DNA from: Clostridia bacterium
GTDB taxonomy: Bacteria > Bacillota > Clostridia > UMGS1883
Assembly: GCA_045638945.1 (NCBI GenBank)
Contig: JAZUCF010000018.1
Location: 1,954 to 65,953, forward strand
Reading direction: 5' to 3'
Length of the DNA: 64,000 nucleotides
The translations under genes and the position numbers were made by a program. Each line of letters starts with the position of its first letter. Position 1 is the first letter of the stretch. The notes beneath the pieces were generated by a model. The model saw nothing but the letters and a program-made list of their open reading frames with translations, was not told the DNA's origin and did not search any database. Below, in pieces: positions 2,720 through 49,012 of this stretch.

Positions 2720-2740
2720 TTTTGCGGTCGGTGCTGCTTT
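2720..2740 (-). repeat. Solo 21-bp terminal motif of repeat family A
   Basis: Reverse complement AAAGCAGCACCGACCGCAAAA is identical to 6759-6779 and 7000-7020. Confidence 0.8.
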
Positions 2741-3673
2741 TCAGCCCTCCGACTTGTTTTTGTATAACAACGCTGCGCCAATAAGCCCCGCATCTCCGCC
2801 TATTCGTGATGCCATAACCTCAGTTCTTCTAAGCTTACCCACATTAAAGCTGTGCTTTTTCACATATTCTCTGATTGGCTCCATAATAACGTCGCCCTCT
2901 TTTGAAATAGCACCACCCACAACAAGCTCATCAGGCTGAAAAATATTTATCATATCCGTAATGCCGATTGCTACTTCCTCTATCCACATATTGCGGACAC
3001 GCTCTGCATCTTTGTCGCCTTTTTTTGCAAGCTCAAACACAGTTCTTCCGGAAATTCTGTCGCCCGGCTTGATGCCCTTAATCTCATCTCTATGCTCCTC
3101 GGTGGTTTTAATAAGCCCGGTTACGGAAGCATATGCCTCCCAGCAACCCTCTCTTCCGCAGCCGCATTTTCTTCCGCCTGCATGGATTACCACGTGTCCA
3201 AGCTCTCCTGCCGCACCGTTTGTCCCCGTGAAAAGCTTTCCGTCTATTACAACACCGCCGCCAACGCCTGTTCCTAATGTAATAAATACAAAGTTCTTTG
3301 CATTATCTGCCTTGTAGTATTCGCCCAATGCGGCACTGTTTGCATCATTTTCCACAAGCACGGGAACATCCTTTAAGTTTTTCTGCAAATAATCCCTTAC
3401 GGGGGCGTTTATGTAGGGAATATTTGGAGAACTGACCAAAAGCCCCTTGTCGCGGTCTACAACACCGGGCGCCCCGACACCGATTGCTTCAATTTCGTCT
3501 GCTCCAATCTTTGCCTCTTTAATTGCTCCCTGTACACTTTCGAGCATTGCTTTGCAGAAATTCTCGTTATTATCAAGAGGGGTGGGAACTGCACATTTTG
3601 CAACAATATCACCTGTGTGAGTCACCACACCTGCTTTTATGCTCATTCCGCCTACGTCTATACCGATATACAT
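2741..3673 (-). CDS. glcK: ROK family glucokinase
   Basis: GIDVGG, ENDAN, TLGTGVGGG, GELGH, CxCGxxGCxE zinc motif. Confidence 0.88.
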   Translation of the reverse strand: MYIGIDVGGMSIKAGVVTHTGDIVAKCAVPTPLDNNENFCKAMLESVQGAIKEAKIGADEIEAIGVGAPGVVDRDKGLLVSSPNIPYINAPVRDYLQKNLKDVPVLVENDANSAALGEYYKADNAKNFVFITLGTGVGGGVVIDGKLFTGTNGAAGELGHVVIHAGGRKCGCGREGCWEAYASVTGLIKTTEEHRDEIKGIKPGDRISGRTVFELAKKGDKDAERVRNMWIEEVAIGITDMINIFQPDELVVGGAISKEGDVIMEPIREYVKKHSFNVGKLRRTEVMASRIGGDAGLIGAALLYKNKSEG

Positions 3674-5533: not shown

Positions 5534-6745
5534 GTGGGTTTAATAGTACAGAAATTCGGCGGCAGCAGTGTTGCCAATGCGGAAAGAGTTTTCCGCGTAG
5601 CAAGCCGTATTGTGGAAACTTACGACGAGGGTAACGACGTTGTGGTAGTTGTTTCCGCACAGGGCGATACTACGGATGATTTGCTTGAAAAAGCGGCAGA
5701 AATCAACAAAAACGCGTCAAAAAGAGAAATGGACGTTCTTCTCTCGGCAGGAGAGCAGATTTCAATGTCACTTCTTGCAATGGCTATTGAGAAGCTGGGA
5801 AGACCCGTTGTTTCCCTTACAGGCTGGCAGGCAGGTGTAAATACCAGCAGCAATTATTCAAAGGCGCGCATTAAGCGTATTGTCGGCGAGAGAATTCATC
5901 TGGAGCTTGACAAAAAGAAAATTGTTATCGTGGCAGGCTTCCAGGGCATTAATAAGTTTGATGATATCACAACTCTCGGACGAGGCGGCTCAGATACTTC
6001 GGCAGTTGCTCTTGCGGCGGCTCTGGGGGCTGACCTTTGTCAGATATTCACAGACGTAACAGGCGTGTATACAACCGACCCCAGAATCGTGCCTGAAGCT
6101 AAAAAGCTTAATGAAATTACTTACGACGAAATGCTGGAGCTGGCAAGTGCAGGTGCAAATGTGCTTCATAACAGAAGCGTGGAGCTTGCAAAGAAATTTA
6201 ATGTAAATATGGAAGTGCTGTCAAGCTTTGAAAAAGTTCCCGGCACTATTGTTAAGGAGGAAAACACAGTGGAAAAGATGTTAATCAGAGGTATTGCCCG
6301 TGATAATGATGTTGCAAGAATTGCTCTTGTAAATATTGATGATAAGCCCGGAAAGGCTTTCCAGATATTCTCACTTTTAGCAAAGAAAAAGGTGAATGTT
6401 GATATTATTCTCCAGTCAATCGGCCGTGATGGAAGTAAGGATATCAGCTTCACTGTAAGTGCAGGCGACCTTGAAACAGCGCTTAACGTAATTAACGAAA
6501 ACAACTCCATCATCTGTGCAGAAAAGGTTATTCATGATGAAAACGTATCAAAGGTTTCCGTTGTAGGTGCAGGTATGACATCAAATCCCGGTGTTGCTGC
6601 AACAATGTTTGAAGCTCTTTACGATGCAGGAATCAACATTCAGATGATTTCCACAAGCGAAATCCGTGTAAGCGTTCTTATTGACAGAAAAGATGCGGAA
6701 AACGCAGTGAAGGCGATACACAGTAAATTCAACCTTGCTGACTAA
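5534..6745 (+). CDS. lysC: Aspartate kinase (alpha subunit)
   Basis: VQKFGGSS, TLGRGGSDTSA, two ACT domains, ISTSEI; GTG start after GGAGG. Confidence 0.95.
   Translation: MGLIVQKFGGSSVANAERVFRVASRIVETYDEGNDVVVVVSAQGDTTDDLLEKAAEINKNASKREMDVLLSAGEQISMSLLAMAIEKLGRPVVSLTGWQAGVNTSSNYSKARIKRIVGERIHLELDKKKIVIVAGFQGINKFDDITTLGRGGSDTSAVALAAALGADLCQIFTDVTGVYTTDPRIVPEAKKLNEITYDEMLELASAGANVLHNRSVELAKKFNVNMEVLSSFEKVPGTIVKEENTVEKMLIRGIARDNDVARIALVNIDDKPGKAFQIFSLLAKKKVNVDIILQSIGRDGSKDISFTVSAGDLETALNVINENNSIICAEKVIHDENVSKVSVVGAGMTSNPGVAATMFEALYDAGINIQMISTSEIRVSVLIDRKDAENAVKAIHSKFNLAD
6269..6745 (+). CDS. Probable in-frame aspartate kinase beta subunit
   Basis: AAGGAGG at 6254-6260, 8 nt before an in-frame GTG at codon 246. 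Confidence 0.7.
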   Translation: MEKMLIRGIARDNDVARIALVNIDDKPGKAFQIFSLLAKKKVNVDIILQSIGRDGSKDISFTVSAGDLETALNVINENNSIICAEKVIHDENVSKVSVVGAGMTSNPGVAATMFEALYDAGINIQMISTSEIRVSVLIDRKDAENAVKAIHSKFNLAD

Positions 6746-6758
6746 TACGGAATGTGAT

Positions 6759-7020
6759 AAAGCAGCACCGACCGCAAAACGCGAGGGGTGCTATATGGGG
6801 AGGCGCTTTTCTTTGGTTGTTTAACAAAGAGGCTTTTCTTGATTAATGTAGAACTTCGCTCAGGCGAAGTTCTATTTTTATGCGTTTTGCTATCCGCGAA
6901 CTTCACCCTCGACGTACCCTCGTACGCCTTCGGGCAAGCCCTAATGGGTTCAGTTCGTGAATTCTGCACTACTTTCTCCCATTCCTCAATGCGTGCGGCA
7001 AAGCAGCACCGACCGCAAAA
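6759..7020 (-). repeat. Structured intergenic repeat, family A copy 1, bounded by a 21-bp direct repeat
   Basis: 87-nt core 6884-6970 is near-identical to 16610-16696 and to the reverse complement of 46124-46210. Confidence 0.9.
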
Positions 7021-7103: not shown

Positions 7104-7346
7104 ATGGATATAAAAGATGCTATTGTAGCACGATTTATGGAGCTATGCACTGAAAAGGGAATTAAAATAAATGAGCTTGCAACCTTGTCGGGTGTTACTC
7201 CGTCTACGGCATATAGTATGATGGATAAATCACGCCGAGATATTTCGATACGAACAATTAAGAAATTCTGCGATGGTCTGGAAATTACGTTAGGAGAGTT
7301 CTTTTCAACCGGTGAATTTGATAATCTTGAGCAGGAGATAAAATAA
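7104..7346 (+). CDS. XRE/Cro-family HTH regulator 1
   Basis: 80 aa; INELATLSGVTPST HTH; GAGGTG RBS. Confidence 0.9.
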   Translation: MDIKDAIVARFMELCTEKGIKINELATLSGVTPSTAYSMMDKSRRDISIRTIKKFCDGLEITLGEFFSTGEFDNLEQEIK

Positions 7347-7391
7347 GTAGTATGTTAGTAAGACCCGTTTTGTTAATGTCGGTTCTTTTTG
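7317..7391 (+). repeat. 75-bp direct repeat copy 1 (XRE 3' end + comEC 5' end)
   Basis: 74/75 identical to 7735-7809. Confidence 0.95.
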
Positions 7392-7430
7392 TGGCGAGGG
7401 TATATTTCGCTGTGAAAAGAACCGATTTTT
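7378..7430 (+). terminator. Putative intrinsic terminator after XRE gene 1
   Basis: GTCGGTTCTTTTTGTGGCGAG pairs with TTCGCTGTGAAAAGAACCGAT (several G-U pairs), followed by a T-run. Confidence 0.6.
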
Positions 7431-7446
7431 CGTGCTTTGTCCAAAA

Positions 7447-7516
7447 TTAACTCTAAAGAGGTAACTATTTTAACTCAAAAAGGGTAATGTTTTAATATAA
7501 AACTCTTTTGAGGTGA
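7447..7516. promoter_or_regulatory. Three 18-bp pseudo-palindromic operators upstream of XRE gene 2
   Basis: TTAACTC-TAAA-GAGGTAA (7447), TTAACTC-AAAA-AGGGTAA (7470), AAAACTC-TTTT-GAGGTGA (7499, overlaps the RBS). Confidence 0.6.
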
Positions 7517-13736: not shown

Positions 13737-13750
13737 GGGGAAAATGTGCT

Positions 13751-13875
13751 AAAGCAGCCCTTGCAAGGAGTCAAAACCGAGGTACACGTCCTCGGTTTTG
13801 ACATAATTTATTATCAAGAGGAGCACCCCTTGATAAAGTCCTGCGGACTTCCGTTTGTCCGTTCTGCACTACTTT
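13751..13875 (-). repeat. Chimeric intergenic repeat (family A ends, family C interior)
   Basis: Begins AAAGCAGC, ends TTCTGCACTACTTT; interior 13759-13837 matches 55187-55265. Confidence 0.75.
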
Positions 13876-13997
13876 ATCCCGTTTTCCGAAGTGGTGTAAA
13901 TTTTATGCGTTTTGCTGTACAAATCTTTGATAAACGTAATTTACAGGGCAAAAATGCCGTGGTAAGATAAAATTGAGAGATTTTAGGAGGTGCTATA

Positions 13998-14838: not shown

Positions 14839-16467
14839 ATGCTTAACAAGATTTTAAAAGAAATGACTCTTGAAGAAAAGGTAGGACAGATGTGTGTTCC
14901 CATTCTTCAGTCAGACCACATTACCGAGGACATTAAAAAAGAAATCGAGGAGTACAATATCGGTGTAATCCGCTACTGCCCTGATGCAGAGTTTGACAAT
15001 GCCAGCGTTATAGTGGGCGAGCCCAATAAATATTTTCAGCCCGGAGAGACGGCGGAGTTTTTAAACAGCCTGCAACGTATGAGCAAGCTTCCCCTTATTA
15101 TCTCTGTTGACCAGGAGGGCGGTACAAGGTGCGACATAAACCGCTGTAATGCCATGGTATACGCAAGCCATATGTGCTTTGGCGTGGCAGATGACGAAAA
15201 TCTTACATACGAGGTAGCAAAGGCAACGGCGAAGGAATTTCGCAGCATGGGAATCAATCAGATTCAGTCTCCCATCTGTGACGTGTTCCGCTACCCCGGC
15301 AGACAGACCATGAAAGCAGCTACCTTCGGCGATGACCCTCAGAGCGTTGCAAAGCACGCAGTTGCAATGAAGCGTGGCTTCAATGACGGCGGAGTAATTT
15401 CCATGGGCAAGCATTTCCCCGGTTACGGTTCTATTGCTACCGATGCTCACAAGGGCACAGCCCATATTGTAAAGAGCGTAGAAGAGCTTGAAAGAGAAGA
15501 CCTCGTTCCTTTCAAAGCTATTATCAATGACGGTGTTCAGGCAATGATGTCGGGTCACGTTATCGTTGATGCAATAGACCCCAAATATCCTGCTACCCTT
15601 TCCGAAACTATGCTTGGGGGATATCTCAGAGGAAAGCTGGGCTTTAACGGCATTATTATGACCGATGCTATGCGTATGAAAGCCATTCAGGATAACTACG
15701 GAACAGGTCCTGCAAGCGTTATGGCAATTAAAGCAGGCTGTAATCTAGTTCTTCTCCGCGGAGATTTCAATCATTTTAAAGAGGGCTACGATGCAATTCT
15801 TGCAGCGGCAAAGAGCGGCGAAATCTCTGAAGAAGTTATTGATAACTGCGTAATGAAGCTTCTTGAAACCAAGAAAAATGCAGGTCTTTTTGAAGAAAGG
15901 TTTGCTGACCCCGCGGTTGCCGAAAAGACTGTGGGCTGTAAGGAGCATCAGGAGCTTCTTAAAAAGCTCGCGGAAAAATCCATTTCCGTGCTTAAGGACG
16001 AAGCACTTCCCCTCTGCCCCAATGATGGCAAGAAAATTGCAGTGATTACCTGCGAGCCGCAGAAAATAGCGGCTGCACTGGATGAAAAGCAGTGCGTGGA
16101 AATGCTTGAAAAGGAAATCTGTGCAATACATAAGGATACAGAGAGCATTGTAATCCGTCTTAATCCCGAAAAAGAGGATATAGAAAAAGCCGTAGCACTT
16201 GCGGAAAAATCAGATGTTGTAATTTTGGGTATGTGCAGTGCAATTATCTTTAAAAATCAGCTTGAGCTTTATAAGGCTCTTGAAAAAACAGGCAAGACCA
16301 TAATAGTTGTTGCAATGGAATCTCCCTACGATATCGAGCTTATTCCCGATGTAAAGGGTTATGTAGCAACATACGGTGCCGCACGTGACTGGATGAGGGT
16401 TGCGGCAGAGCGTATTTTCGGACTGAACGAAATTAATGCAAAGCCTGCTATAGAGATTAATTGGTAA
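14839..16467 (+). CDS. GH3 beta-N-acetylhexosaminidase-like glycosidase, cytoplasmic
   Basis: DQEGG, KHFPGYGxxxxDAH, TDAMRM nucleophile; no signal peptide. Confidence 0.85.
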   Translation: MLNKILKEMTLEEKVGQMCVPILQSDHITEDIKKEIEEYNIGVIRYCPDAEFDNASVIVGEPNKYFQPGETAEFLNSLQRMSKLPLIISVDQEGGTRCDINRCNAMVYASHMCFGVADDENLTYEVAKATAKEFRSMGINQIQSPICDVFRYPGRQTMKAATFGDDPQSVAKHAVAMKRGFNDGGVISMGKHFPGYGSIATDAHKGTAHIVKSVEELEREDLVPFKAIINDGVQAMMSGHVIVDAIDPKYPATLSETMLGGYLRGKLGFNGIIMTDAMRMKAIQDNYGTGPASVMAIKAGCNLVLLRGDFNHFKEGYDAILAAAKSGEISEEVIDNCVMKLLETKKNAGLFEERFADPAVAEKTVGCKEHQELLKKLAEKSISVLKDEALPLCPNDGKKIAVITCEPQKIAAALDEKQCVEMLEKEICAIHKDTESIVIRLNPEKEDIEKAVALAEKSDVVILGMCSAIIFKNQLELYKALEKTGKTIIVVAMESPYDIELIPDVKGYVATYGAARDWMRVAAERIFGLNEINAKPAIEINW

Positions 16468-16480
16468 ACGCCTGGGCTGC

Positions 16481-16704
16481 GAAAAAACGCACAGATCGCA
16501 AAACACAAAAAAATAATAAAAATATGCCTTTTAAAAAGCGGCGTAACAAAGCGTCTGTTAAAGGTTGATGAAGGAATCCGTTTTCGCGGATTCCTTTTGC
16601 ATTTTATATGTTTTGCTATCCACGAACTTCACCCTCGACGTACCAACGTACGCCTTCGGGCAAGCCCTAAAGGGTTCAGTTCGTGAATTCTGCACTGTTT
16701 TTTC
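16481..16704 (-). repeat. Structured intergenic repeat, family A copy 2
   Basis: Core 16610-16696 matches 6884-6970. Confidence 0.9.
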
Positions 16705-16746
16705 ATCGCCCAAGAAGAGCTGCGAAAAAAATTTTCTCTAAACCTA

Positions 16747-16800
16747 TTGACATTTGAAAAAATAGGTGTTATATTAAAGTCAAAGAAAGTCAAAGTCAAG
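16747..16800 (+). promoter_or_regulatory. SigA promoter with CtsR box
   Basis: TTGACA-17-TATATT, then AGTCAAA-GAA-AGTCAAA (16778-16794) plus a partial third heptad. Confidence 0.9.
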
Positions 16801-33218: not shown

Positions 33219-33255
33219 ACGAGGGTGTAAAAAACTTTGTTTTTTACACCCTCGT
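33219..33255. terminator. Palindrome between convergent genes (GGTGTAAAAAA type)
   Basis: ACGAGGGTGTAAAAAAC / GTTTTTTACACCCTCGT. Confidence 0.7.
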
Positions 33256-35950: not shown

Positions 35951-35996
35951 AAAATAGAGAATGTAGAAAATTTTGTTTTCCACATTCTCTATTTTG
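35951..35996 (+). terminator. Hairpin after apgM
   Basis: AAAATAGAGAATGT / ACATTCTCTATTTT. Confidence 0.65.
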
Positions 35997-37968: not shown

Positions 37969-38013
37969 AAAAAAGAGGTGTAAAAAAGTCTGACTTTTTT
38001 ACACCTCTTTTTT
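37969..38013. terminator. 45-bp palindrome between convergent genes
   Basis: AAAAAAGAGGTGTAAAAAAGTC-T-GACTTTTTTACACCTCTTTTTT. Confidence 0.75.
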
Positions 38014-45987: not shown

Positions 45988-46117
45988 TTTTATCACTGCC
46001 TTTAAAATAAAAATAAGAGGCAAAAGTACACTTCTCATAAGATTTTATCTTATAAGAAAGACCTTTCACCTCTTTCTTTCATTATTTGATTTAATTAAGC
46101 ACATTCCGAAAAGGCTC

Positions 46118-46333
46118 AAAAGTAGTACAGAATTCATGAACTGAACCCTTTAGGGCTTGCCCGAAGGCGTACGTGGGTACGTCGAGGGTGAAGTTCGTGG
46201 ATAGCAAAACACATATAATCCGAAATTCGCACCAGCGAATTTCTTCTTCACTCAATCAAAGAACCCTTGTAAGTTACTTCACTAAAGGCACTTTTCCTTG
46301 TTTTTTTTGTGTTTTGCGATCTGTGCTGCTTTT
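46118..46333 (+). repeat. Structured intergenic repeat, family A copy 3
   Basis: Core 46124-46210; AAAAGTAGTACAGA pairs with TCTGTGCTGCTTTT. Confidence 0.9.
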
Positions 46334-46341
46334 CAGGCTTT

Positions 46342-47034
46342 TTATACTCCTTCGAGTTCGTTTTCTTTGCGGTTATAACGATATTTTGAAACGTATCCTT
46401 CGCCGTACTCTTTCTTTTTCGTTGTAATTACAACAGAGCGGTTGGGGTCTTTACCTGTTGAATAAGTAGTTACGTTTCTGTATTCCTGGAGTGCGGAATG
46501 AATAATTCTTCTCTCATTGGGATTCATAGGCTCAAGAGTTATGCTCTTTCTTGTTCTTGCAACAACGCCTGCCATTCTTTTTGCAAGCTTTATAAGAGTT
46601 TCTTCTCTTTTTCCGCGGTAGTTTTCCGTATCAATGGTAACACGGATGTAGTTTTCCTCACCCTTATTTACAACCAGGGATGTAAGGTACTGGAGGGCAT
46701 CGAGAGTATCGCCTCTTCTGCCGATAACCTTTCCTACTTCCTCACTGTCTCCTAATATTTCGATATTTACTGTTTCATCCTCGTAAGAAGCCTTAATCTC
46801 TACGTCAATTCCAAAGCTATTCATTACGCTTTTAATGTACTTTTCAGCTTTATTAAGAGGAGTTTCCTCCATTTTTACTCTTACCTTTGCTTCCTCAGAG
46901 CCGATTCCCAAAATACCGCGCTTTCCCTCGTTGATAACTTCTATTTCTACTTCATCCTTTGTTACTCCGAGCTCGTTAAGCGCCGCATTTACTGCATCAT
47001 CAATTGTTTTTGCGCTTTTTTCAATTATTATCAT
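46342..47034 (-). CDS. jag: RNA-binding protein Jag/EloR/KhpB
   Basis: Jag N domain, KH (IGRRGDTLDALQ), R3H (ERRIIH). Confidence 0.93.
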   Translation of the reverse strand: MIIIEKSAKTIDDAVNAALNELGVTKDEVEIEVINEGKRGILGIGSEEAKVRVKMEETPLNKAEKYIKSVMNSFGIDVEIKASYEDETVNIEILGDSEEVGKVIGRRGDTLDALQYLTSLVVNKGEENYIRVTIDTENYRGKREETLIKLAKRMAGVVARTRKSITLEPMNPNERRIIHSALQEYRNVTTYSTGKDPNRSVVITTKKKEYGEGYVSKYRYNRKENELEGV

Positions 47035-48894: not shown

Positions 48895-49012
48895 TTATTA
48901 ACAGTTTTTGTATTTATTTTTGTTTTTTTAACAGGTTTAATGCCCTTATATCCCTGTAAAACGCGACTTATTAACAGGTTTTATTAACAGCCTTGTTAGT
49001 AAGTGTTAAAAA
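48895..49012. other. oriC part 1: cluster of variant DnaA boxes upstream of dnaA
   Basis: TTATTAACA at 48895, 48968, 48981; TTTTTAACA at 48925; reverse TTACTAACA at 48994 and TTTTTAACA at 49004. Confidence 0.75.

Follow-up and report, generated by a model that had tools for sequence, protein, structure and literature searches.

A repeat behind stop codons of gut Clostridia that folds on one strand is most likely an IS1182-family MITE

The repeated element found behind three genes of the window (the whole 64,000-nucleotide stretch of clostridial DNA analysed here) is most likely a MITE of the IS1182 family that displaces terminators, supplies a terminator itself and contains a fold formed by one strand, probably as single-stranded DNA. 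Two observations lead to this reading: the ends of the element match IS1182 inverted repeats, and behind secG a hairpin has been replaced by the element without target duplication. The kind of element is known; its novelty lies in combining a terminator-restoring end with a polarity rule and with a core that is conserved across phyla, probably at the DNA level. 'RNA-like' repeats behind the stop codons of gut Clostridia can be explained in this way as selfish DNA that swaps the terminator of a gene for its own, and screens for structured RNAs should therefore expect them. A one-strand fold with non-canonical pairs would be kept inside a DDE-type MITE, with a core that recurs in distant phyla.

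Copies in the window and in its genome

The first-pass annotation had described three copies of a dispersed structured element, here called family A. All three are present, each about 235 nt long, with outer limits slightly different from those first drawn (6749-6985, 16473-16712 and 46109-46342). They start 0-6 nt past the stop codons of lysC, GH3 and jag, and the 87-nt core that had been called near-identical agrees at 82, 82 and 83 of 87 positions in pairwise comparison. The related features of the window are the following:

2720..2747, − strand: left-end-only remnant; its TGA is the stop codon of a ROK-family kinase gene
5534..6745, + strand: aspartokinase (lysC), host gene upstream of copy 1
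6749..6985, + strand (gene-sense; folding strand −): copy 1, 3 nt past the lysC stop, from sequence comparison
6908..6932, − strand: core motif of copy 1, CGNAGGCGTAC-loop-GTACGTCGAG on the folding strand
6990..7020, + strand: second start behind copy 1, left-end remnant of a further unit
13737..13887, + strand: chimeric fourth copy after the coat-F gene, with family-A ends and an interior from a second repeat family
14839..16467, + strand: GH3 glycoside hydrolase, host gene upstream of copy 2
16473..16712, + strand: copy 2, 5 nt past the GH3 stop; left end 15/19 to the IS1182 inverted repeat
16634..16658, − strand: core motif of copy 2
16717..16731, + strand: second start (left-end-like remnant) behind copy 2, visible directly in the sequence
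33221..33253, no strand: solo hairpin with IS1182-type arms, of the type that forms the terminal hairpin of mobile copies
35957..35989, no strand: solo hairpin with degenerate IS1182-type arms
37975..38007, no strand: solo hairpin with IS1182-type arms
46100..46108, − strand: CGGAATGTG remnant behind copy 3
46109..46342, − strand: copy 3, directly at the jag stop; left end 11/19
46162..46186, + strand (the folding strand is + here): core motif of copy 3
46342..47034, − strand: Jag/KhpB, host gene upstream of copy 3

Judged by sequence, the window copies are an older subfamily whose ends are eroded and whose terminal hairpin is gone. The left end of copy 1 is of IS1182 type but eroded (13/19) and the copy has no terminal hairpin, unlike the lysC copy of the relative G012, which retains a decayed one. 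Copy 2 is also in place in G012, where it is 98% identical; the outer stem of copy 3 extends into the jag stop codon, and the same site is empty in G012. DNA contigs assembled from reads span copies 1 and 2, and none has a joint that skips either copy. In one run (X10), a DNA contig omits 154 bases at 7342-7497, after a small HTH gene, possibly a strain polymorphism or another small insert.

The second start behind copy 1 is real, since an exact 21-nt repeat links 6759-6779 to 7000-7020, and the CGGAATGTG remnant behind copy 3 is probably, from its sequence, a decayed second start of the same type. The head-to-tail organisation hinted at by these remnants recurs as arrays in 7 of 97 clusters; the lysC site of one relative fits it as well, a different copy standing ahead of the older left end in G030.

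The genome that contains the window (G000; 1.63 Mb, 84% complete) harbours 18 full copies of family A, 13 coreless left ends versus 1 coreless right end, as well as 20 small hairpins whose arms are similar; 18 of these hairpins lie at most 60 nt from a stop. Left-end remnants provide the TGA stop of the host gene in the window (2720-2747, −) and after mnmE at locus L020.

The core pattern is present in 66 of the 87 genomes of the order. For the class and the phylum, the figures rest on an 80-position core model in place of a full-length covariance model: it has matches in 30 of 146 class genomes and in 2 of 141 phylum genomes, with G000 counted in. Among the matches listed, those records of this element that carry a title are from gut Clostridia, and no match was obtained with the element in plasmid and phage collections. 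The element is shorter than 500 bp, multicopy and without coding capacity: a 121-codon ORF that overlaps it has no Pfam match. Its presence differs between relatives at jag, lysC, hisIE and secG, and no neighbouring protein recurs among 657 ORFs around about 200 loci.

The element had not been recognised as a named family, and the Rfam scans agree: nothing reached the gathering threshold in the window, eight other loci gave tRNA matches and weak sub-threshold matches only, and these eight together with ten further loci gave nothing relevant by E-value and no Clostridiales-1 match. Our literature search, confined to the main text of openly accessible papers, found no description of the family or of the core motif; repeat catalogues in the supplements of papers could hold the family.

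A covarying fold on one strand

We aligned 71 of 82 non-redundant copies, the other 11 having mostly miscalled ends. The stems proposed from the window, and their covariation (GCAAAACGC/GCGTTTTGC versus GCAAAACAC/GTGTTTTGC), were found as described, and in this larger alignment both partners have changed in 40 of 54 pairs. The covariation score is 0.372, versus 0.149 for shuffled and at most 0.079 for slid alignments (kinship among the 71 copies inflates such counts). The predicted fold consists of a closing stem, a three-way junction and two arms: the long arm bears the core stem and may have a side hairpin as well, and the second bears a hairpin that is fixed in position and free in sequence across the 71 copies. 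At four loci (L008, L013, L236 and L238), structured inserts of 100-200 nt without Rfam match lie in the core-stem loop or replace it.

The strand opposite the upstream gene is the one that folds, as the first-pass annotation had noticed. It pairs in 93.4% of the cells of the 71-copy alignment, and in copy 3 it reaches z = -7.1 versus -3.8 for the other strand. Among the 82 non-redundant members, it has the lower energy in 79 with RNA parameters and in 80 with DNA parameters, and in 17 of 18 cases it does better than the other strand against shuffles. The wobbles also fall on this strand, with G·T in 267 cells versus A·C in 45; at one pair, 27 copies have G·T and another 27 have T·G. Each of the GA/GA tandem, the GAA/GA loop and the two junction bases (A, G) occurs in 64-71 of the 71 copies, and where one side of the GA/GA tandem has changed, it has mostly become TC, restoring ordinary pairs. 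The outer stem includes the host stop codon in its pairing and tracks it (TGA/TCA or TAA/TTA), as seen at L190, L020 and L204 (jag site).

Folded DNA or functional RNA

Whether the element acts as structured single-stranded DNA or as RNA had been left open between the two; its one-strand fold resembles, by prediction, folded single-stranded DNA, and nothing shows an RNA gene. On the folding strand, 19 of 42 side-hairpin triloops have the form C(GNA)G, with all four bases at N, versus none on the other strand; as 8 of the 19 come from a single genome (G040), about a dozen are independent. Sixteen C(GNA)G triloops do not allow a second reading as UNCG on the sense strand, and GNRA tetraloops account for only 4 of 111 loops. 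In a review, mini-hairpins with GNA loops are described as unusually stable in DNA, with a much lower melting point for an RNA GAAA counterpart given as an example (PMC13037366). Taken with the G·T wobbles and the purine loops, the C(GNA)G triloops of the modelled fold probably point to folded single-stranded DNA.

It is rather unlikely that the fold is a functional RNA (antisense or 3′-UTR) or a host-domesticated regulator, with the IS1182 ends explaining only its spread. Such a function would account for the covariation, the swapped G·U/U·G pairs and the nearly invariant purine loops. It would also suit the conservation of resident copies between species, which are 93-99% identical in seven of eight comparisons (84% at jag) while the four-fold sites of the adjoining genes are 50-87% identical; however, two element-free intergenic controls are equally conserved (95% and 98%), so that the in-place identity stands without a neutral control. 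Moreover, the folding strand is the strand kept out of the upstream mRNA, the loops are DNA-type triloops and not GNRA or UNCG, and sites turn over fast. No sigma-70-type promoter was found inside copy 2; outside it, the one candidate for the folding strand, at 16771-16799, matches weakly (9/12). The RNA data are unstranded contigs from two runs; one run has a contig of 161 nt, at depth 149, from the element of a relative, and as this contig is unstranded and multicopy we gave it no weight.

IS1182-type ends and the terminal hairpin

IS1182 transposases of relatives and metagenomes are flanked by GGGG(C/A)TGTAAAAAA-type repeats; reference IS1182 transposases match NF033551. The left ends of family A agree with IS1182 inverted repeats at 15 or more of 19 positions in 45 of 71 copies, one of them at 19/19, versus 1 of 355 shuffles. 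Copy 2 reaches this level, and the left ends of copies 1 and 3 fall within the shuffle range. The inner right end of the element is imperfect, and the near-identical recent copies of five genomes (G035, G040, G042, G045 and G052) all run into a terminal hairpin; its far arm is complementary to the left end, and the two change together from lineage to lineage. In G050 the copies have a near-perfect right repeat and no hairpin, and at L245 a complete IS1182 occupies the usual place of the terminal hairpin. Sequence comparison thus shows the recently spread unit as an IS1182-like left repeat, the fold and the terminal hairpin, the far arm of which serves as the right repeat. The ends of autonomous IS1182 elements also have hairpins (47 of 49 left and 35 of 45 right ends, counted without a control).

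Several results count against an IS1182-family MITE, the eroded ends of the window copies among them. No IS1182 gene or fragment was found in G000 at its 84% completeness, and among five high-copy genomes only G035 has a fragment. IS1182 is present in 16 of 87 relatives and does not co-occur with the element (13 of 66 element-positive versus 3 of 21 element-negative genomes). Multicopy insertion sequences are often left unassembled. The core was found inside IS1182 ends at 0 of 121 loci, L245 being the only adjacent case.

Insertion sites and turnover

Behind secG, the terminator is a 21-22-bp hairpin in G021 and G002; in G000, G012 and G030 the element with its terminal hairpin is found instead. 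Comparison of the three filled with the two empty genomes shows both flanks intact and no target duplication. At this one site, the aligned sequences show the element replacing the terminator stem-loop without target duplication; secG is the single locus with such evidence, which counts against the IS1182-MITE reading. At jag, the element stands at the stop codon with an intact hairpin beyond it, and TAA is repeated in one filled/empty pair. By this sequence comparison, the jag insertion is not a stem-loop replacement, which counts against a single mode of insertion. Duplication of a whole hairpin around the element was sought as a flanking repeat of more than 12 nt and found at 1 of 33 loci, where it comes from an enclosing second MITE: at L411, the element and its hairpin are nested in a further MITE of IS1182 type, which left a duplicated 24-bp hairpin on either side.

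The hisIE site shows five states in five genomes, and copies at the same site (jag, lysC) are spread over several branches of a tree that is unrooted and blind to recombination.

These observations can be joined into one scheme. An IS1182-family transposase would move the gene-less element in trans, together with a cargo of about 235 nt, for which a one-strand fold is predicted, probably formed by single-stranded DNA. Insertion would swap the terminator hairpin behind a gene for the element, whose terminal hairpin may restore termination. Units could then be duplicated or lost between the left end and the near arm of the hairpin, which would account for arrays, solo hairpins and second starts. 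After loss of the hairpin, the survivors would mainly be copies from which the weakly folding strand enters the mRNA, and this would give the polarity seen in the window. The fold itself might, more tentatively, be kept because a protein recognises it on single-stranded DNA during transposition or replication.

Orientation behind genes

The element had been described as always folding antisense to the upstream gene. The three window copies do so; across the family the rule is not absolute. In G000, 14 of 17 scored copies begin at −1 to 12 nt relative to a stop on the same strand (5% under the null; P about 6e-16) and 2 of 17 are reversed. Between gene pairs of the same direction, taken from 97 clusters in many genomes with simple ORF calls, there are 39 forward versus 16 reversed copies. 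Twenty-six of the 39 forward copies have no hairpin. The hairpin test accepts 9 of the 16 reversed copies; on inspection by eye, 4 of the others show a degenerate or displaced hairpin, 2 a second unit and 1 nothing. Reversed copies are thus nearly always behind their own terminator hairpin, so that the folding strand is rarely read into mRNA, and we infer that the polarity arises by selection after insertion. Twenty hairpin-less copies between convergent genes (by our own ORF calls), whose folding strand may be read, count against this explanation. Autonomous IS1182 elements lie within 15 nt of a stop at 6 of 51 left and 8 of 39 right ends, far below the element, which counts against the IS1182-MITE reading.

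As to replication polarity, dnaA is at 49003, the skew is slight, and three relatives have the lysC block in the opposite orientation. In the window (about 3800-33200 versus jag at 46342), lysC faces away from jag, and the two are co-oriented in G012, G021 and G030; this suggests an inversion near the origin or a misassembly.

RAYT transposases as candidate partners

The first-pass annotation had proposed a non-autonomous mobile element acting as a substrate of HUH/RAYT transposases. A non-autonomous, mobile nature is retained; the HUH/RAYT partner is not, as the ends match inverted repeats of IS1182, a DDE family, and insertion replaces a terminator hairpin, as in IS1272. A REPIN-like single-stranded substrate of a RAYT/Y1 transposase, with IS1182-like ends and hairpin acquired from a preferred landing site, is unlikely, slightly more so than a functional RNA. 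It would fit the one-strand fold with its DNA-type loops and the unconstrained base in the core, the tandem arrays and the jag-stop insertion without loss of the terminator, and RAYT-like genes are present in 53 of 87 genomes, G000 included. However, the element brackets 0 of 30 RAYT loci in relatives, and the one adjacent copy cuts into the 3′ end of the RAYT gene; the RAYT of G000 has unrelated flanking repeats. In addition, the RAYT search gave no match in the high-copy genomes G040 and G082, and the ends of the element covary with the terminal hairpin and match IS1182.

The RAYT-like Y1 transposase at L001 (G000:C1:36544-37320) is bounded by its own repeated GGGGAC-type inverted ends, and a RAYT near L086 likewise has its own ends.

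Comparison with known repeats

The family-A core resembles what we take to be the central GCGTAC...GTACGT stem of RPE-1, a Rickettsia palindromic element that is a long imperfect palindrome of 100-250 nt. The RPE1 peptide model TIGR01045 had no match in G000 nor at the motif in five other genomes and, in this comparison by peptide model, family-A copies differ from RPE-1 in not lying in frame inside genes. The attC sites of integrons also follow stop codons in one orientation and fold on one strand with G·T pairs and unpaired bases; unlike them, family A has no RYYYAAC/GTTRRRY ends that we could see, no cassette arrays and no recurring integrase among the 657 neighbouring ORFs.

The nearest known system is IS1272, an IS1182-family element of staphylococci that, in the sections of the sources consulted, targets and removes terminator-like stem-loops without target duplication; in TnSha1, an alternative left repeat together with the right end of the insertion sequence moves cargo (PMC5678879, PMC4923244). 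Family A shares with them, as far as these sections describe them, the stem-loop replacement, the cargo layout, repeated insertion at the same site and the possibility of both orientations. It differs in having no transposase and a cargo that is a non-coding covarying fold and, relative to the same sections, in a right end that is a ready-made terminator-like hairpin, in strongly polar survivors and in arrays.

Like the MITEs Chunjie, RUP, BOX, SPRITE and bcr1, as presented in the review PMC10969869, family A is shorter than 500 bp, intergenic and bounded by inverted repeats, with a stable predicted fold and many partial copies, and the 178-235 bp given there for Chunjie is close to its size. 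Within that same account, and with Chunjie compared by description only, family A differs from them in lacking direct repeats and in its strand-specific, non-canonical, covarying fold. REP/REPIN sequences, in the portion consulted of PMC3733652, are likewise palindromic, intergenic, next to stop codons and arranged in arrays, with a probable single-stranded DNA fold. Against that portion, family A is set apart by its length of about 235 nt, its multi-branched fold and its IS1182-type ends; we saw no GTAG/CGTC foot, and it does not flank RAYT genes (PMC3733652).

The core motif in distant phyla

The core motif occurs in at least 123 genome-contig stretches, from deltaproteobacteria, Nitrospira, Acidobacteria, Planctomycetes, Fibrobacterota, Actinomycetota, Clostridia and others, a few of them being chance hits within genes. 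Among the matches listed, most non-clostridial ones lie in long imperfect hairpins, the same strand folding better in 40 of 49, and several have IS1182/IS5-like ends and CTAG flanks. Three bases outside the search pattern are CGN in 39 of the 57 non-clostridial matches listed, which gives CGNAGGCGTAC-loop-GTACGTCGAG. The clostridial model reaches E ≤ 0.05 for nine distant loci, themselves chosen by the shared pattern. No stop-codon polarity was found in the non-clostridial relatives: with crude end calls, 5 of the 49 listed have a stop on the left, 11 on the right and 26 none.

Speculatively, and in our view at odds well below even, the core could be an undescribed single-stranded DNA recognition signal shared across phyla, read by a host factor (e.g., primase) or by DDE transposases of the IS5/IS1182 clan, so that MITEs would move or be copied via a folded single strand. 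To our knowledge, neither process is known for DDE elements. If the core were such a signal, it would bear on the recognition of DNA structure by IS1182 transposases and on the origin of long palindromic repeats.

The core also weighs on the least probable reading, that of an ordinary MITE with an unselected fold, whose covariation comes from template-switch correction of quasi-palindromes (one arm being copied onto the other): it would explain why the outer stems reach into host stop codons and follow them at jag (TAA/TTA, TGA/TCA), yet arm copying perfects pairs, whereas the wobbles, GA/GA, GAA/GA and junction A/G persist (in each column, 64-71 of 71), the core with its free N is found again in distant phyla, and G000 holds 18 intact folds versus about three internally deleted two-ended copies.

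A second repeat family and the jag-mnmE spacer

A second structured repeat, family B, is found at the post-stop sites that family A uses, and it stands in for the interior of family-A copies. It was found in the window at 13737-13887 and after jag at L186-L188, L196, L198, L199 and L201. No Rfam match was obtained in the loci tested, and its centre, GAGGTACA, resembles the family-A core. In the spacer between jag and mnmE (window about 46015-46075, −), a long hairpin with internal loops, possibly a terminator or leader, is present in most of the 30 genus members shown.
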